Source of the DNA: a virus
Taxonomy: Duplodnaviria > Caudoviricetes
Direction: 5' to 3' (one strand)
Virus record (IMG/VR): IMGVR_UViG_3300050156_000143
Location: 160,001-224,000 of that record
DNA: 64,000 bases
Every line of letters begins with the position of its first letter. Position 1 is the stretch's first letter. Both the position numbers and the translations under genes were made by a program. Below, piece by piece: positions 11,107-47,978 of this stretch. The notes below the pieces were generated by a model. The model made no database searches. It saw only the letters and a program-made list of their open reading frames with translations, and was not told the origin of the DNA.

Positions 11107-11183
11107 CGGAGTATAGCGCAGTTTGGTAGCGCATCTGCTTTGGGAGCAGAGGGTCGTAAGTTCGAGTCTTACTATTCCGACCA
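11107..11183 (+). tRNA. tRNA-Pro(TGG)
   Basis: TCTGC-TTTGGGA-GCAGA anticodon arm, TTCGAGT T-loop, CCA; TAAATA at 11094. Confidence 0.95.
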
Positions 11184-11191
11184 GTTTGATA

Positions 11192-11267
11192 TGGAACATA
11201 GCTCAGTCGGTAGAGCAACGGACTTTTAATCCGTGGGTCATGGGTTCGATCCCCATTGTTCCAACCA
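11192..11267 (+). tRNA. tRNA-Lys(TTT)
   Basis: ACGGA-CTTTTAA-TCCGT, TTCGA, CCA. Confidence 0.95.
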
Positions 11268-11274
11268 AGGTTTT

Positions 11275-11363
11275 GCGCGAGTGGTGGAATTGGTGGACAC
11301 ACTTGGTTTAAGCCCAAATGCTCTTGATTGAGCGTAAGAGTTCGAGTCTCTTCTCGCGCACCA
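11275..11363 (+). tRNA. tRNA-Leu(TAA)
   Basis: TTGG-TTTAAGC-CCAA, long variable arm, CCA. Confidence 0.9.
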
Positions 11364-11371
11364 AAATATAG

Positions 11372-11450
11372 GCTGAATTAGCTCAGTTGTTGGCAGAGCG
11401 CCAGTGCTGTAAACTGGAGGTCATCTGTTCGAGTCAGATATTCAGCACCA
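11372..11450 (+). tRNA. atypical tRNA-Thr(TGT) with G32/C33
   Basis: GCTGAAT/ATTCAGC acceptor; CCAGT-GCTGTAA-ACTGG; G1-C72, C2-G71 fit Thr. Confidence 0.75.
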
Positions 11451-11457
11451 ACATTCT

Positions 11458-11545
11458 GGAAACATGGGGGAGTGGTTTAACCCAACAGTCTTGAAAACTG
11501 TCAAAGAGCAATCTTTCGTGAGTTCAAATCTCACTGTTTCCGCCA
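11458..11545 (+). tRNA. tRNA-Ser(TGA)
   Basis: ACAGT-CTTGAAA-ACTGT, long variable arm, G73, CCA. Confidence 0.93.
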
Positions 11546-11558
11546 CTTTTTTACAACG

Positions 11559-12320
11559 ATGGAGTTTATGATGGAAAACGTGTTTTTACTCGCTTTCACC
11601 CCGGTGATTGCTATGAGTTGGATATATCTTGCTGGACTAACGGCAGTGTTGTTACTAAATGCGTGGGCGTATGATTCCGATAATTATGGGATTACTTTTA
11701 TTACTGGACTGCTACTCATGGCAGGTGTCTTTTACCCCGTTGTCACCCAGGGCAATCTCACCTTCATGACCGGTGTTTGGGCATTCTGTGTGTTCTTGGG
11801 GAAATGGATGGTAGTTGGGTGTGCGGTTTCATTGGTGAAACTGTTGGTGGAATTGTCTACTCAACGAGATCAATTAGTGGCAGCGTGGGAAAAGTTTGTG
11901 CTCATCATGGCCCGAGACTATGTGAGTCTATCTGACCCCAACGGTGAATGTACGGTTGGTGATGTTTATCGCAACGTTGAACTCGCAAAATCCGAACAAG
12001 CTGGTCGTGCGACTTTTGATCCAATCACCATTCGCACTTCGTTGTTGCGCATATTCGACCTGAACTACGTGCAATCATCGGTCAAGTTTTTCACCCTGGT
12101 GGCACTAAACGATTCCGCAGCTCCACTGGTGAAAATGAATCGTGGAGAAATCGGAGAGCGTTTCAGTCTGTGGGCCACTTTGTGGCCGTCAGTTGTGATT
12201 GATCTTGTGTTTGGCAAATTGCTCTCAAAATTGTTCAACATGTTATCCACCGTGGTATCCAAGATTTCCCAATGGTATAGCTCGTGGTTGTTCAAGGGAG
12301 TATTCAATGTTAAAGACTGA
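11559..12320 (+). CDS. multi-pass membrane protein
   Basis: Three to four hydrophobic N-terminal segments and one C-terminal. Confidence 0.75.
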   Translation: MEFMMENVFLLAFTPVIAMSWIYLAGLTAVLLLNAWAYDSDNYGITFITGLLLMAGVFYPVVTQGNLTFMTGVWAFCVFLGKWMVVGCAVSLVKLLVELSTQRDQLVAAWEKFVLIMARDYVSLSDPNGECTVGDVYRNVELAKSEQAGRATFDPITIRTSLLRIFDLNYVQSSVKFFTLVALNDSAAPLVKMNRGEIGERFSLWATLWPSVVIDLVFGKLLSKLFNMLSTVVSKISQWYSSWLFKGVFNVKD

Positions 12321-12960
12321 TCTGGTAGCATATAACGAGATTGTGGCGAAACTATCACCATATCTTCAGAAGTATGCAACGATCGAGGGCAACACTGATC
12401 CGTTGGTAATCACAAGTGGGTGCGTACTATTAACTTCCTTCATCGAATGGTTGGACAATCCTGAACAATGGGCTGGCGCATGGACAACCGCCGACAGCTC
12501 ATATGTTTGGTGTCAGGTCTCCAATTATGAACGATGCTGGGATTTGAAATCGATCGCGGAAACCATTGCCGAATATGAGCGATATGCACGGTATTCGATT
12601 CACAACATTCCCATCCACTTTTTGGACATGGTGCAAAAAACCGTTAAACATCATGGGTTAGAATCTGGGGTATCCAGTGTGACCGCTGGTGAACTGAATT
12701 CGATCATGAAACTGATGGGGAAATTTGATTTAGAAAATTGGGAGGACAACAGACGTGCAACATTAGCCGCAATGATGTCCGATCTGCATGGTTATCCAAC
12801 AGTGGAAAATCCCGTTAAGATATACTTGGCAGGCACCGACGATTGTTCATGGACATTATGTGTTGAAACTGTTGAGATCGCGGATAAAATCGTGACTGAC
12901 CTGATTCAATGCGCCACTTGGGCAAAATTGCACGAATATGGATTTGTTTTTACAAATTGA
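12307..12960 (+). CDS. hypothetical protein
   Basis: AGGGAG SD before ATG 12307; YLAGTDDCSW motif near C-terminus. Confidence 0.7.
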   Translation: MLKTDLVAYNEIVAKLSPYLQKYATIEGNTDPLVITSGCVLLTSFIEWLDNPEQWAGAWTTADSSYVWCQVSNYERCWDLKSIAETIAEYERYARYSIHNIPIHFLDMVQKTVKHHGLESGVSSVTAGELNSIMKLMGKFDLENWEDNRRATLAAMMSDLHGYPTVENPVKIYLAGTDDCSWTLCVETVEIADKIVTDLIQCATWAKLHEYGFVFTN

Positions 12961-12980
12961 GCGCTAACTGGGGAGGTAGC

Positions 12981-13337
12981 ATGGCTGATTACACGAAGTT
13001 CAGATTGCGAGTCACTTTGCGCCACGATGCTCCCCAGGATGTCATTACGACGATCGCCTACGCTGTTAAACACGGTAAGTTCAAGTTTGATAAATCTGGG
13101 CATCCATTGTTCGCGCATCCTGCTTGTGACAGTTTGTTACGTTGCAGTAGGATATTTGTTCCCAAATCTGGTGTGTTGCACTTGGCTCACCAAGACGGAA
13201 TCAAAGATGCACGTCTGCTTCAGTTGCTGATAAAATGGCTATCACCACATCTTTATGAAGTCCCAGGAACATTGATTGGGGTATGTCAGAACCAAGTTGA
13301 CATGAGACACACAGCCTCGTTCGTGCTTGGACAGTAA
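12981..13337 (+). CDS. hypothetical protein
   Basis: GGAGG SD before ATG 12981. Confidence 0.75.
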   Translation: MADYTKFRLRVTLRHDAPQDVITTIAYAVKHGKFKFDKSGHPLFAHPACDSLLRCSRIFVPKSGVLHLAHQDGIKDARLLQLLIKWLSPHLYEVPGTLIGVCQNQVDMRHTASFVLGQ

Positions 13338-13373
13338 ATTTTCAGAAATTTCGTAGCAAAATGGCCAACGTGG

Positions 13374-13382
13374 TGCTACAAT
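13374..13382 (+). promoter_or_regulatory. extended -10 promoter for the second tRNA cluster
   Basis: TGCTACAAT 11 nt upstream of tRNA(CAT); related TGCTAYANT at 3717, 5758, 10001, 16445, 48619. Confidence 0.6.
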
Positions 13383-13393
13383 AAGTTTTTACG

Positions 13394-13473
13394 GGGTGGC
13401 AAGCCAACATGGTTGCGGCGGCGAATTCATAATTCGTGTTCATTACCCGGTTCGAGTCCGGGGCCACTCACCA
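13394..13473 (+). tRNA. tRNA with CAT anticodon (Met or lysidine-modified Ile2)
   Basis: GGGTGGC/GCCACTC acceptor, GCGAA-TTCATAA-TTCGT, 8-nt variable region, CCA. Confidence 0.85.
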
Positions 13474-13481
13474 GAATATAT

Positions 13482-13560
13482 GCGGGTAGACAAGTGCAAA
13501 GGGCGCACAACTGATTTCCAATCAGTAGATCGCAGGGTTCGATTCCCTCTACCCGCTCCA
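13482..13560 (+). tRNA. tRNA-Gly(TCC)
   Basis: ACTGA-TTTCCAA-TCAGT, U73, CCA. Confidence 0.92.
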
Positions 13561-13566
13561 TGATTT

Positions 13567-13661
13567 CTGCCCTTAGTTCAATGGATAGAACAACTGCCTT
13601 CTAAGCAGCATTAGATCAAACTATGGTCAAGGTGTCGGTTCGAGTCCGGCAGGGCAGGCCA
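13567..13661 (+). tRNA. tRNA-Arg(TCT) with long (24 nt) variable region
   Basis: CTGCCCT/AGGGCAG acceptor, CTGC-CTTCTAA-GCAG, extra hairpin GATCA-AACTA-TGGTC, CCA. Confidence 0.85.
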
Positions 13662-36533: not shown

Positions 36534-36974
36534 ATGCGACATTTTGAAATTCCGACATGGTTTGCACACATGAGTTCTGGCAACGTGGAACGATCCGCGA
36601 TCGATGCACTGTTTGCCGATCTGGAACGTGCAACCCGCACAGCAATCGATTCCCGCAAGTATCCGCCCACCAACATCATCAAAACGTTGGATGACGCCCG
36701 TGTCGTTGAAATGGCGGTGGCAGGTTTTGAAAAGGATGACTTGTCTGTTGTGACAGACCGAAAGCAACTGATTATCACTGGGAAACTTCCGAAACCATCG
36801 GATGTGGAATACATGACACGTGGCATCGCCCGTCGAAACTTTGAAACCACTGTGGAGCTACGTGATTATGAAGAAGTGCGCAACATCATCTTGAAAAATG
36901 GTATGCTACGCATTGAACTGGTGCTCAACGTGCCAGAACAAGCCAAACCAGTAACCCATAACATCGTTTCCTGA
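36534..36974 (+). CDS. small heat shock protein Hsp20 (IbpA-like)
   Basis: YPPTNIIK, EMAVAGF.K.DL, Y..RGIA.R.F, L.NGML.I.L. Confidence 0.93.
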   Translation: MRHFEIPTWFAHMSSGNVERSAIDALFADLERATRTAIDSRKYPPTNIIKTLDDARVVEMAVAGFEKDDLSVVTDRKQLIITGKLPKPSDVEYMTRGIARRNFETTVELRDYEEVRNIILKNGMLRIELVLNVPEQAKPVTHNIVS

Positions 36975-36988
36975 AAGGATTTCCCATC

Positions 36989-37285
36989 ATGGCTACTCAA
37001 AATGCCGTCAAGCCGAACAAACAACTGCAAGCACCCAAGTTTTGGAACGTGATTTTTCACGATGGTGTGAAGACGACTCATGAACATATCGTAAGTTGCC
37101 TAGAGGCATTTCTCCGGTATGAGTCTCATGCTGCCACTGATAAGGCCTATGAAGTTTCTGATGATGGTAATGCTGTGGTGGCCACATTGCCGTATGAGAT
37201 CGCAGAAGAAAAGGTGGCTGCTATCAACGGATGCTCTGACATGACGGGCAACGTGTTGAAGGTCACGATGGAAATGTCCACCTAA
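36989..37285 (+). CDS. clpS: ClpS-like adaptor with altered N-degron pocket
   Basis: P..W.VIFH....T.E.IV..L..F...A...A..V...G.AVV....EIAE.K. Confidence 0.8.
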   Translation: MATQNAVKPNKQLQAPKFWNVIFHDGVKTTHEHIVSCLEAFLRYESHAATDKAYEVSDDGNAVVATLPYEIAEEKVAAINGCSDMTGNVLKVTMEMST

Positions 37286-41104: not shown

Positions 41105-41518
41105 AAGGAAATGATGATGAAAACTGTTGAAAAAACTGACGAACAACTTGACGCGATGATTTACAGGGTGATGGCGGGCGTGGTGGTGTTTGGGGTGTCA
41201 GTAGTTATTTGGTTCCATCATTTTGGCTAAGTTGTTATGAAGCCCATCCCCCCATCAAGCGAATATTTGAAAGAAGAGAGTGGTCTTGGCGTATTGGTCT
41301 GCTTGTTGATTGCTTTCTTTCTCGGATTGATCGCCGTTGGCGCCATCATGTTAACAACCCCTGAACAGGCTGTGTGCCCTGCGCGCAATTCGGCATCGCC
41401 ACCTTGGTTGTGAACATTGACCTGACAGAGAGGTTGTTACACAAATGGCACCTCTTTTGTTTACACTTGTGTCACAATGTTCGTATCGACCACACCCAAT
41501 CCGACCATTGCGCCCCAT

Positions 41519-42721
41519 ATGATCAAAACAAGCAAGCACGCGATCAAATTTGCAAATCCCGGTAAACAACTAAAGTTACAGGAATTCTTGCGTGTTTATA
41601 ATTTGGCACTCCAATTTTACATTGATTATTTCTGGGAAACGCGGATACAGTGGGGAAAGACGGTTATGGACATCAAGCGCAACAAACTAGATGTTCCACC
41701 GTTTATTAGTACCGCATTATTACCAAAACCGTATCCTGACCTTAGTGCTAGGGTAATCGGGATCATTGCGTCCGAAGCATTGGGCGTCATTAAGACACAA
41801 ACAGAACGCCGCAAAAAACAGCTTTATGTGTTGGCCACTAAAATGCGAGTTGGCGACGCCCAATCAATCAAACGGTTACAGTCCAGAATAGATTCGGCGA
41901 CGTTGATGAAACCAGACCGATCTGGCTGTGCGACTGCGACTCTGAATATCAACTGCTGTGAATTTGTGAAAACTGACACCCATTTTGATGGGTTTTTGAA
42001 GTTGAAGAGTATTGGCAAATCTTTTGGGACAATTTGTATCCCGGTTGTATTTACCAAGCACACCAATTCGTTGATTTCTAAAAACTACCGTCAAATGACG
42101 ACTTGGCGAGTATCGTCTGATTTTGTCGTGAGCACATGTTTATCTCTGTCAGACGGGCAGTCCACACAAAAATGTCCACACGGGCATGATTTGGCATCGA
42201 TTTTGGATAAAATGGCCCGCAAGAGGCGCGGCAGCTTGGCAGCCAAGCGGTGCCAGGATCATCGCAAGAATTACATCAACTACTCAATAAACCGACTTAA
42301 TTTACATAATGTATCAGAGCTGCGTTTGGAGAAATTGCGTCAAATGCGGGCTGGACACCGAACCAGTACGGCGTTAACTCACTGGACTTACACCCAAATA
42401 AATGCACAGATAACTAGCCGTTGCGCAGAGCTGGGTGTCCCAGTTATTGAACAATCGGCGACTTATCGTAGTCAACGGTGCAGTAGTTGTGGGTGGACAC
42501 AAAAATCCAACCGGAAGAGAAAGGAGTTTGTGTGTAAATCGTGTGGTCAAATACACGACGCAGATACAAATGGCGCTCTTAACCATGAAGCTGACATATA
42601 TCGGCTCCCGTTTGGTTTCTACAAATTTAAGCACAATATCAGAGGATTCTTTTGGACAGCTTCTGGCGTTTGCGACGAATTTGGTCGGGCACTTACAGTT
42701 CCCGACGTGCAAAATGAGTGA
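41519..42721 (+). mobile_element. tnpB: IS200/IS605-family TnpB, no tnpA nearby, RuvC-I motif apparently missing
   Basis: RuvC-II LRLEKL, SATYRSQRCSSCG...CKSCG..HDADTNGALN; no G(I/A)D(L/Q)G before LSLSDG. Confidence 0.85.
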
Positions 42722-42859
42722 GTCACGTAGCAACGAGGCGAACTTGAACTGTAGCTGTAGCATGTGCAATCTGATAATTCCCATGTAATCACATTGGGTT
42801 TACACGTTCATCGTGGTGCGTGATACGATAGGGACACATCACCAAATGGAGCTAAGATC

Positions 42860-44512: not shown

Positions 44513-45100
44513 ATGCTGATTCCAACCGTTATCGAGCAATCTGGCAATTCTGAACGCGGTTTTGACATCTTTAGTCGCATGTTGCGCGACCGGGTAGTGT
44601 TTTGCAACGGGCAAGTAACACAAGAGCTTGCAAACGTTGTGGTGGCACAATTGCTCTACCTTGAGAGCGAAAGTTCAACCAAAGACGTTACGTTGGTTGT
44701 TGCTGGCCCAGGTGGCAGTATTGATGCTGGCATGCAAATTGTTGACACCATGAATTTCATTTCGTGTGATGTTTCGACCCATGCGATGGGTATGGTGGCG
44801 TCAATGAGTTCGTTTATCGCGGCGAGTGGTGCCAAAGGTAAGCGCTATATCATGCCTAATACGCGCCACATGATTCATCAGCCACTTGGCGGCGCAGAAG
44901 GTCAAGCCACCGATATCGCCATCACTGCGAAAGAAATTTTGCGCATTAAGGAAAACATGAACCGACTATACGCGCAATATACCAACCAACCTTATGACAC
45001 AATTTGTCAAGATACCGAGCGAGACTTTTATATGTCGGCCCAACAATCCGTGGAGTACGGCCTGGCTGACCAAATTATCAGCAAACGGGGCCAACAATGA
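44513..45100 (+). CDS. clpP: ATP-dependent Clp protease proteolytic subunit
   Basis: LIPTVIE, DIFSR.LRDR, ASM (Ser), MIHQP (His), ERD (Asp), EYGL.D. Confidence 0.96.
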   Translation: MLIPTVIEQSGNSERGFDIFSRMLRDRVVFCNGQVTQELANVVVAQLLYLESESSTKDVTLVVAGPGGSIDAGMQIVDTMNFISCDVSTHAMGMVASMSSFIAASGAKGKRYIMPNTRHMIHQPLGGAEGQATDIAITAKEILRIKENMNRLYAQYTNQPYDTICQDTERDFYMSAQQSVEYGLADQIISKRGQQ

Positions 45101-45225
45101 AAACCATGATCGCAATTGTGTGTATCACGTTGTCAGCATGTGCAACCCATCGCGCTGATGATGTTTCGGTACAGTGCAACAAATTTCACACGCAGTATGA
45201 CTGCTATCGCGCCATTAACAAATGA
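45097..45225 (+). CDS. small lipoprotein (42 aa)
   Basis: MKTMIAIVCITLSAC lipobox; ATGA overlaps at both ends. Confidence 0.6.
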   Translation: MKTMIAIVCITLSACATHRADDVSVQCNKFHTQYDCYRAINK

Positions 45226-45947
45226 AAACCATGCTCAAAACTACCAAAGACGTTGAACAAGAGATTGGTAAAGTTAAACTTGCTTTGACCAAAACTCTGC
45301 AAACGGAAAAACTACCTGACTTCAAAATTGAGGTCAAAATGGCGGCAGACGTAAGCGGCAGTTTTGCTGATGAGTATGCCAACAAATTGGTTGATCCGTT
45401 TTTTGACGCTGCTATTAGCATCGCTCAAGTTGTTGACCCCGACAAATTGGTTCAAATTGTTGCGTTTAGTAGCGAGGCATTTGATACCGGCGATTATGGC
45501 GTAGATGATGCGAAGGACGTGAAAACAGAATTTTTGCGACGGGTTCCCGCCAGTATGTTATGGCGTGGCACAAACTATGGGCGTGCGTTAGAGGCCTTCA
45601 ACGTTGATGCCCCAAAGTCCACAGGTTTGTTCAGCGGGTTGTTTGGTGCCAAGAAAACTGTCGTCAATTCGCCGACGATTTTGCTGTTCTTGACTGACGG
45701 CGAAGATGGTGGAAACGAGGCAACTTTTTTGCGCAATTTGTCTCTCATGGTGGCCAGCAATTACTTCATTGTGCTAATCGGTGCCAACAATGATTCCCGC
45801 CAAGATTTCGCCACCTTGGTCAAAGCTGATGAACAAATTGAGGGCGTATCGTTTCACAAATTGTCAGATTTGAAGTCACTGTCCACCGACAAACTGTACC
45901 AACAGATTTTTAACCAGGAGTTCACTAAATGGTTCACCAAGAACTGA
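45222..45947 (+). CDS. vWA-domain protein (Ter-associated)
   Basis: MIDAS DVSGS, GTNY, LFLTDGED. Confidence 0.85.
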   Translation: MKTMLKTTKDVEQEIGKVKLALTKTLQTEKLPDFKIEVKMAADVSGSFADEYANKLVDPFFDAAISIAQVVDPDKLVQIVAFSSEAFDTGDYGVDDAKDVKTEFLRRVPASMLWRGTNYGRALEAFNVDAPKSTGLFSGLFGAKKTVVNSPTILLFLTDGEDGGNEATFLRNLSLMVASNYFIVLIGANNDSRQDFATLVKADEQIEGVSFHKLSDLKSLSTDKLYQQIFNQEFTKWFTKN

Positions 45948-46150
45948 AATCAATTGCGGACTATATTGCTGAACAAATTCTGGCCAATGGTGGCGAAGAA
46001 GGTGTCCACTGGCGTAATGCCCTAGTGAAAATCATGGCGGACAAATTGGGGATATCGACTGAACATGTTGACCAAACCTTAGACGACCAGATTGACGGAG
46101 CGTTGGCTATCAATCTTGGGTTGATGGAGGAAAATACTGATGGAATGTGA
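45929..46150 (+). CDS. hypothetical protein
   Basis: 73 aa ORF. Confidence 0.5.
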   Translation: MVHQELKSIADYIAEQILANGGEEGVHWRNALVKIMADKLGISTEHVDQTLDDQIDGALAINLGLMEENTDGM

Positions 46151-46358
46151 CCGCATTGAAGTGGAATCGATGGCAGCTTTTTCTCAGTATAACTGTGGAT
46201 CGTATCCTGGTTTATGGAGTGGACGACTGGTAAAAACCACGATCAATGGCGTTCGATATTTAGTAACTATGCCAATATATTGCAAGGGAGTAAATGTCCC
46301 AGTGACCGTTACGTGTAACGATGGTGTCTATGTTGTTGTGAATAAGGAATCACTATGA
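46140..46358 (+). CDS. hypothetical protein
   Basis: GGAGG SD. Confidence 0.6.
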   Translation: MECDRIEVESMAAFSQYNCGSYPGLWSGRLVKTTINGVRYLVTMPIYCKGVNVPVTVTCNDGVYVVVNKESL

Positions 46359-47368
46359 AAAGCAATTTGGATTATTTTAAGGGCAGCATCGCATTTGCCG
46401 TGCTCACCCTAATTTTGGTGGCGTCATACGGCGCATCTATTAGTTTGGCAGCAGCCGTGAGCTTCACGGTGTCTGCCATGATTTTGGCCATTTTGGAGAC
46501 CACAGTGTCTCTAGATAACGCCATTTTGAACGCCACGGTGTTGAAACACATGAGCGCATTTTGGCGAAAAATGTTCCTCACCGTGGGCATATTCATCGCG
46601 GTATTTGCTGTGCGAATGGTGTTGCCCATCATGATTGTCAAATTCACTGGCAATGTGACTTTCATGGATGCGATCACAATTCCATTCAATGATCCGGCGC
46701 GATATGCGCAAATCATGCACGATGCTCACATTTCTATTCTTGGGTTTGGTGCGACATTTTTGTTGATGGTAGTGGCGACTTATTTCTTCAACATTGACAA
46801 ATCCCACCACTGGATTCACCACGTTGAATCGAAGTTGACACAACTCCCAGTTACGCCAGTGGTGTTGATGGTAGTGGTGGTGATTGGGTATTTTGTCGAG
46901 TTGGACAAACTTGGTGCATATTTTATCAGTTCAGCAATTGGTTACGGTGTATACCAAACTATGCACCTTATCAAGGCATGGCTGGGGGGCAAAGACTTGT
47001 CCACCGCTGTTGCAAAAAATGGCCTAATCGGGTTCGCATACCTTGAACTGTTAGACGCTAGTTTCAGCCTTGACGGCGTGGTGGCAGCGTTTGCAATCAC
47101 CAATATGTTCATCATCATTGCAGCGGGCCTTGGAATTGGGGCTATGTTTGTGCGATCAATGACTGTGTATTTGGTGGACAAAGAAACGCTGGAACAGTAT
47201 GAATTCCTGGAGCATGCGGCATATTGGGCCATTGCGGCGTTGGTTGTGATCATGTATCTGGGTATTTTGCACATCGAAGTGGGCGAAATTGTTGCAGGGT
47301 TAACCTCCGCAGCAATTATCGCTGCTGGGGTGTGGTCATCTATTCGCAAAAACCGTATTTCAAACTGA
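46355..47368 (+). CDS. terC: TerC-family (DUF475) integral membrane protein
   Basis: LE..VSLDNAI.NA..LK.MS.FW, YLELLDASFSLDGV..AFAIT, GLGIGAMFVRSMT. Confidence 0.92.
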   Translation: MKSNLDYFKGSIAFAVLTLILVASYGASISLAAAVSFTVSAMILAILETTVSLDNAILNATVLKHMSAFWRKMFLTVGIFIAVFAVRMVLPIMIVKFTGNVTFMDAITIPFNDPARYAQIMHDAHISILGFGATFLLMVVATYFFNIDKSHHWIHHVESKLTQLPVTPVVLMVVVVIGYFVELDKLGAYFISSAIGYGVYQTMHLIKAWLGGKDLSTAVAKNGLIGFAYLELLDASFSLDGVVAAFAITNMFIIIAAGLGIGAMFVRSMTVYLVDKETLEQYEFLEHAAYWAIAALVVIMYLGILHIEVGEIVAGLTSAAIIAAGVWSSIRKNRISN

Positions 47369-47378
47369 AAGGAATATC

Positions 47379-47978
47379 ATGTTAAAAATCACAAAAGATC
47401 AAAAACTACCATTGGTGAAAGGTGGCGCTAAATTGACCAAAATTCGGTTGGAACTATCTTGGAGTCCACCGACTATCAATACGACCGGATACGCCTATGA
47501 TTTTGATATCAGCGCCTTATTGACCGACTCCTCAAAAACTGGGAATTGCGACATGGGCGTGAGCATTGGCAATCAATGGATATGTTACTGGGGACAACAA
47601 AATACCCCATACGCAAACCATATCAAGGGCGATAACCGCAATGGTGTTGGTGTTGGTGCTGATGAAATTGTGGAAATCGATTTCGCACAAATTCCGCAAA
47701 ATGCTGACCGAGTGCCATGTGTTATCACTATTGACAAAGCGATTGCTCAAAACCAATGCTTCGATCATTGTGGTGATGCGACCGCTGTGGTGTTTGATTC
47801 AGCGTCGAATACCCCAATTGCCACCATTGTGTTGAGCAAGTTGGACAAAGGTTCCACCAGCGCCTTGTTGGGGTGTTTCAAACGAGACAGCGGTGGCTGG
47901 ACATTTGAGAACGCATCGACTGGATTTGTGGATAAGGAATTGGTTGACTTTTTTATGTTGTTTGGATGTGAACTATGA
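47379..47978 (+). CDS. terD: TerD-family stress protein
   Basis: L.W, DFDISA, GDNRNG.G.G.DE.V.IDF. Confidence 0.88.
   Translation: MLKITKDQKLPLVKGGAKLTKIRLELSWSPPTINTTGYAYDFDISALLTDSSKTGNCDMGVSIGNQWICYWGQQNTPYANHIKGDNRNGVGVGADEIVEIDFAQIPQNADRVPCVITIDKAIAQNQCFDHCGDATAVVFDSASNTPIATIVLSKLDKGSTSALLGCFKRDSGGWTFENASTGFVDKELVDFFMLFGCEL

Follow-up and report, generated by a model that had tools for sequence, protein, structure and literature searches.

An orphan IS607-family TnpB of a 277.5-kb phage lacks its RuvC-I strand and is probably a freshly inactivated remnant

The tnpB locus and its family

The window, the whole stretch of 64,000 nucleotides that was analyzed, covers bases 160001-224000 of a 277,516-bp (277.5-kb) phage record with direct terminal repeats and a GC content of 44.9%. 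On its plus strand lies an IS607-family tnpB gene (41519..42721) of 400 uninterrupted codons; its start at 41519 agrees with that of the nearest relatives, and an in-frame upstream ATG at 41477 would give an alternative product of 414 aa. The product was identified as TnpB by a Pfam match (PF07282, E=1e-14), an NCBIfam guided_TnpB match below the cut-off and matches to the TnpB/Cas12f zinc-ribbon families. The WED/REC, RuvC, and zinc finger parts of a TnpB were recognized from Pfam and NCBIfam matches and from models of an intact relative and of the deleted protein. A homologue search yielded 232 proteins, the nearest of which (P0002) is 67% identical to the phage TnpB. This is the only tnpB copy in the whole record, and no IS607-type tnpA was found beside it or elsewhere in the phage genome, using a query that finds tnpA at about half of related loci. 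The first-pass annotation, which had described an uninterrupted orphan TnpB reading frame with no adjacent tnpA, was borne out on both counts, the absence of tnpA extending to the whole genome.

Where related loci do carry tnpA, it lies upstream and encodes a serine recombinase scoring above the NF033518 IS607 transposase cut-off. Element ends were defined from multi-copy relatives as GTGTTA on the left (present in L009, L012, L016, L017, L018, and L020) and (T)AACTGT on the right, with the flanks diverging right after the right end. The phage copy retains the right end AACTGT (42747..42752, plus strand), at the distance of 58 nt from the loop anchor that most relatives share, and the terminal GT of this end is the family core dinucleotide. 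The exact left end GTGTTA was not found within 1.1 kb upstream, where one-mismatch look-alikes occur at 41434 and 41469. The region directly upstream (41405..41518, plus strand) contains no tnpA and no exact left end, has a C-rich leader as in the nearest relatives, and yielded no sigma-70 consensus promoter for tnpB. A long imperfect hairpin (41405-41490, -29 kcal/mol, z -2.5) lies between a 58-aa upstream ORF and tnpB; its inner stem is followed by a T-run, and it is possibly a terminator. By sequence, the phage copy is a descendant of the IS607 family that is non-autonomous and no longer a complete element.

The closest known systems are CboIStron of C. botulinum (10.1101/2023.11.20.567912) and the ISFba1 TnpB (PMC11061315, PDB 8IAZ), both IS607 elements with TnpB and an omega-RNA. 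As in IS607 elements generally, the relatives have a serine-recombinase TnpA, GT at both ends, an omega-RNA that ends at the right end, and a flank that serves as the guide, and the intact relative is modeled with the fold of TnpB/Cas12f. Unlike these elements, the phage copy is without tnpA, a recognizable left end, and RuvC-I. The core dinucleotide of the subfamily is GT (others AT or CT), not GG; ISFba1 is only distantly related (17% identity in the structural match); and the subfamily TnpBs score below the NCBIfam TnpB cut-offs. In IS607 elements, the final bases of the TAM are matched by the last two of the scaffold (10.1101/2023.11.20.567912), so that a TAM ending in GT is probable for the phage copy. 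The ISDra2 TnpB (IS200/IS605; PDB 8H1J, 8EXA) differs in belonging to another transposon family, with an HUH Y1 TnpA and a TTGAT TAM, and is about 15% identical.

The family comprises 614 clusters at 50% identity (E<1e-30) and is mainly phage-borne (L005-L133), with only 4 matches in GTDB genomes. Large phage contigs often carry intact TnpBs of the family, and copies broken by a frameshift or stop were found at 3 of 77 loci. Large phages were already known to carry TnpBs (PMC12607003), and the GenBank phages searched contained only distant ones, at 24-35% identity. As a remnant, the phage TnpB is ordinary.

The nearest relatives (L002:1772-1850, L003, L004:1049-1100, L010:4900-6330, and L011) are intact, tnpA-less TnpBs at one fixed locus of a 37.7%-GC phage group, where a sigma-70-like promoter (TTGACA..TATAGT) stands ahead of tnpB. 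In L002 and L003, a 45-nt insert begins exactly where the right end stops and takes the place of the guide that L004, L010, and L011 use, and guide swapping at this fixed locus is possible. Several copies of one family element in a sample were seen in L015-L021 (Ga0228699/Ga0228698); part of them are autonomous, and in others the left end lies only 89-90 nt before tnpB, a pattern that indicates recent mobility of non-autonomous copies. In the window itself, host-like stress and proteostasis genes lie near tnpB (36534-37285 and 44513-47978), including ClpP, vWA/TerF-like, TerC, and TerD genes by Pfam and, judged by eye, Hsp20-like and ClpS-like ORFs. The best match of the phage ClpP is only 57%. 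A tRNA cluster of seven to eight genes occupies 11107-13661.

The 22-residue deletion and its predicted consequences

Pairwise alignment with P0002 left a single 22-residue gap in the phage TnpB, and DNA alignment with relatives placed a clean 66-nt gap at 42136/42137. The lost segment, which in P0002 reads W-E-L-D-P-V-K-T-K-G-D-R-V-L-G-A-D-Q-G-L-N-T, takes in the end of the last WED strand, the WED-RuvC linker, and RuvC strand 1, on which the catalytic Asp lies. In the alignment, the Asp of the lost G-A-D-Q-G is kept in 113 of 113 other full-length relatives. An in-frame deletion of the RuvC-I segment had been proposed by comparison with homologues, as a missing stretch of about 20 aa that ends in G(A/I)D(Q/L)G and precedes xxLxLSDG. 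Alignment with the nearest TnpBs confirms and delimits it: the absent residues end just past G-A-D-Q-G, and the catalytic Asp is gone.

At the deletion junction (42134..42138, plus strand), DNA alignments show that one copy of a 5-nt repeat, ACATG, is left; relatives have AC-n-TG at both ends of the lost stretch, in codons T-W at its start and T-C after it. A loss bounded by repeats in this way would be the signature of slippage or a microhomology deletion. Because both repeats sit in the same codon phase, the reading frame was kept, and therefore selection for an open frame is not needed to account for it.

The 90% protein cluster of the phage TnpB has one member. Of 288 homologues that span the site, just one more lacks the Asp, namely a contig-edge FtsA chimera (P0055), and the same deletion was found in none of these or of the 113 other full-length sequences aligned; a search for shorter proteins gave no close fragments. 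As judged from these comparisons, the deletion is private to a single genome. P0055 itself (L004:12-1049) consists of an FtsA-like N-terminal fragment and the C-terminal half of a close TnpB relative, joined just after RuvC-I at a contig edge, and is probably a misassembly.

Searches of IMG/VR with guide and flank patterns returned chance matches or none, and no undeleted allele or empty site of the locus was found. The flank proteins led to close strains (L044-L049) that are 94-99.9% identical on both sides of the element, and none of these strains has a contig spanning it. Since neither an undeleted allele nor an empty site turned up, the date of the deletion was inferred. Two contigs from a 99.5-99.9% identical strain, assembled by two pipelines (L048:1 and L049:1), both begin at window position 42769, exactly 16 nt past the element right end, and differ in their other ends. 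This common start could be a read end or a branch from a variable guide or an empty allele.

The remaining catalytic and structural residues are in place on the plus strand, as the first-pass annotation had stated: alignment shows the RuvC-II Glu (E271, 42329..42331) and the RuvC-III Asp (D349, 42563..42565) to be retained, and Pfam and alignment show the same for the zinc finger cysteines C321, C324, C339, and C342 (42479..42544). E271 and D349 are invariant in all 114 aligned sequences, the phage TnpB included. The D-E-D triad has lost its first Asp only. Position 223 of the family profile aligns to ISDra2 residue 189; judged from the ends of the aligned stretch, the deleted Asp would correspond to ISDra2 D191, the RuvC-I catalytic residue. 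The phage TnpB is predicted to be nuclease-dead from its sequence.

A second lesion was found in the RuvC helical hairpin (42234..42248, plus strand), where the phage TnpB carries K240L and F242A. The F242 column is aromatic (F or Y) in 113 of 113 relatives. Together, the altered bases make up a perfect inverted repeat of 6 bp around a 3-nt loop, and the lesion possibly arose from a template-switch event.

AlphaFold models, which were built with the family alignment and cannot measure stability, were compared for the two proteins. In intact P0002 (pTM 0.79), the WED domain ends with a strand at 202-208, and residues 218-224 and 230-232 form RuvC strands. The model of the deleted protein (pTM 0.55) still has a last WED strand (202-207), lacks RuvC strands 1 and 2, and has pLDDT below 50 at 207-213 and of 80-97 in the C-terminal half. 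The WED domain is whole in this model because V-V-S-T-C stands in for the last WED strand. Compared with TnpB/Cas12f structures, the intact relative reaches a TM-score of about 0.5 and the deleted protein one of about 0.3; in this prediction both halves are kept locally and the lobe arrangement is lost. Since RuvC strands 1 and 2 are missing from the model, the deletion removes an inter-lobe linker and a core strand, which goes beyond the loss of a side chain. The two-lobe fold is predicted to be disrupted.

The omega-RNA module and its guide

An omega-RNA at the 3' end of the gene had been suspected, and so far as its sequence goes the module appears intact, from the stem at 42684-42706 to the right end at 42752. 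The stem and loop (42684..42706, plus strand) are formed by six Watson-Crick pairs between 42684-89 and 42701-06. The loop (42695-42700) pairs with the element 3' end in a pseudoknot and overlaps the T-V-P codons at the C terminus, which are conserved in the family and are the omega-RNA loop. Between stem and right end lies a tail hairpin of 38 nt (42709..42746, plus strand; -8.5 kcal/mol); the tail hairpins of the family are variable in sequence and mostly 21-51 nt long. By sequence comparison, stem, pseudoknot, and tail hairpin are all complete in the phage copy. In one relative (L008:6244-6279), the right end overlaps the stop codon and the tail hairpin is down to 11 nt, with stem and pseudoknot kept.

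The dinucleotides of the loop and of the right end change together across the family: AC occurs with GT at 25 loci, AT with AT at 18, and AG with CT at 9. Across 30 sequences including the phage copy and 11 pairs, 330 of 330 cells were paired, with 50 double changes, compared with 38-62% in slid controls; the structure had been derived from the same 30 sequences in which the pairs were counted. No Rfam family was found over the omega-RNA, either at gathering thresholds or at E<=10. RNAalifold on a MAFFT alignment recovered the 3' stem only, with no conserved structure in the 5' scaffold, and the RNA region, when folded as a single sequence, did no better than shuffles (z -0.9 and -1.3).

The predicted guide is the right flank at 42753..42772 (plus strand), which follows the right end directly; a tandem CTGTAG permits a second register from 42759. 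The idea that this guide acts on phage genes gained no support, as no target was found in the phage genome in either register: no GT-flanked match extended beyond the 7-nt seed, and counts were at or below chance. A search of IMG/VR returned one 18-nt match, inside an unrelated gene and without GT, and twenty 16-nt matches, which is by estimate about the chance number; none reached 20 nt. An origin of the guide as a displaced copy of a neighboring gene start gained no support, there being no second guide match with <=5 mismatches in the phage genome. A small hairpin at 42780-42798, 27 nt past the right end, has just three T behind it and could delimit the transcript of the guide.

Timing of the loss and its interpretation

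The GC3 of tnpB is 0.47. The median for the phage is 0.45, and the nearest relatives have values of 0.32-0.34. Because this value is like that of the phage and not like that of the relatives, a long residence is suggested. The terminal branch is long, at about 1.9 synonymous changes per codon. On the phage branch, dN/dS was 0.04 versus 0.11 (GY94/F3x4 script), a value read only as showing no visible relaxation, because dS on that branch is too high, owing to synonymous saturation and a GC shift. A private deletion with neutral dN/dS had been named as evidence against the first-pass reading; the deletion is private, but the ratio is not neutral. A low ratio is compatible with very recent loss or with continued function.

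Changes at conserved sites number 3 of 114, which is typical for the family. Simulation indicated that so few changes become unlikely beyond about 0.03 neutral substitutions per site, which bounds the neutral time since the loss at no more than about that value. Conserved columns carry 6 radical changes, F242A among them, slightly more than the median of 4. Two readings follow: a very recent deletion, or continued constraint on the rest of the protein. E271 and D349 survive on this long branch although they are now useless, which favors recency and argues against an old domestication. The sequence comparisons suggest a long residence under purifying selection followed by a very recent loss.

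We consider the locus most probably a freshly inactivated remnant of an IS607-family insertion sequence. The absence of a stop or frameshift, the intact folding of the omega-RNA, and the low branch dN/dS run counter to this reading, as they are equally expected if the protein is still a binder, and so do the whole WED domain and the confident C-terminal half of the model. The first-pass annotation had left open a TldR-like repressor or a decaying insertion sequence; the latter fits better, and the former fails on the absence of a clade, on the number of residues lost, and on the retained right end. TldRs form clades with conserved RuvC changes (the screen required at least two of the DED residues), have neither tnpA nor identifiable ends, and show fixed partner genes and promoter targets (10.1101/2023.11.30.569447); the solved TldR keeps a bilobed fold with its RNA bound by RuvC and WED (PMC13622181). 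The phage TnpB resembles them in being TnpB-derived, predicted to be nuclease-dead, tnpA-less, next to a guide-RNA module, and phage-borne like fliCP-TldR. A young domestication of this kind, a nuclease-dead RNA-guided binder repressing a host or competitor gene, would accord with the open frame, the WED and REC parts intact in the model, the fully paired stem and pseudoknot, the lack of excess change at conserved sites, the low dN/dS, and the loss of tnpA and left end; known TldRs also tolerate RuvC decay, and some are phage-borne (10.1101/2023.11.30.569447). It is nonetheless unlikely, because the deletion occurs in one genome with no dead clade, one DED residue and not two is lost, E, D, the zinc finger, and the right end are kept, the predicted lobe arrangement is lost, and neither a conserved partner gene nor a guide target beyond chance in the phage or IMG/VR was found. 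The flanking ORFs of tnpB are orphans that differ from the flanks of the nearest relatives, with no second deleted locus for comparison. TldRs also arise by conserved substitutions or C-terminal truncations in clades, whereas the phage TnpB has one private internal deletion. On present evidence, the phage TnpB is not a TldR. We regard it as similarly doubtful that a jumbo phage of lytic type has been caught at the first step of domestication, in which the deletion left a nuclease-dead protein that loads the omega-RNA and represses a host gene. If true, a TldR would here have arisen in a new way, by internal strand deletion and not by point decay, and it would be the first from the GT-core IS607 subfamily.

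The remaining alternatives are less probable still. A dead protein with a useful RNA, used in trans by the intact family TnpB of a co-infecting phage or acting as a decoy for it, would accord with a 3' module that is fully paired and follows the family covariation, and with the frequency of intact family TnpBs on large phage contigs; we consider it quite improbable, as the phage genome has no second tnpB, there is no promoter consensus upstream, and the module overlaps the ORF and would be intact from recency alone. It is very improbable that the gap arose in assembly or is confined to a minority of a population whose gene is intact. The deletion is present in SRR35796982, and close strains are represented in SRR35797014 and in JGI 3300050162 and 3300050154. 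Over 7842 nt that include the junction, a Logan assembly shows 100% identity, and although it possibly derives from the same sample or reads as the record of the window, two pipelines agree base for base across the 5-nt repeat. A repeat of this length is far below assembly k-mer sizes, and searches for near-length or shorter proteins found no undeleted near-identical one. A nuclease kept active by D202 or D212 in place of the lost Asp is extremely improbable: in TnpB and Fanzor proteins a catalytic residue can move to another position, but D202 lies in a WED turn, D212 belongs to a separate S-D motif that relatives have alongside the catalytic Asp, and the whole strand bearing the site is missing in the model.

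For the remnant that we favor, the following course is proposed. Purifying selection would long have maintained an intact orphan TnpB in the phage lineage, where it would probably have acted as a selfish homing nuclease, guided by RNA to cut element-free alleles (GT plus guide) in mixed infections. The WED-RuvC linker would then have been lost in one slippage or microhomology event, together with the central RuvC strand and its catalytic Asp. The resulting protein would no longer cut DNA and most likely could not hold its two lobes together for stable RNA and DNA binding. The rest of the gene would look intact only because little time has passed. The loss may reflect drift, or may have been favored if cutting had become costly.

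The locus cautions that domestication is not shown by an open frame, an intact guide RNA, and a low dN/dS if the deletion is a private one flanked by in-phase repeats. As a natural deletion of RuvC strand 1, it lends itself to testing how large a part of RuvC is required for a TnpB to hold on to its RNA. The surrounding family is possibly worth more than the phage copy: it is large and mostly phage-borne, has a short omega-RNA outside Rfam, and includes orphan copies fixed at one phage locus.
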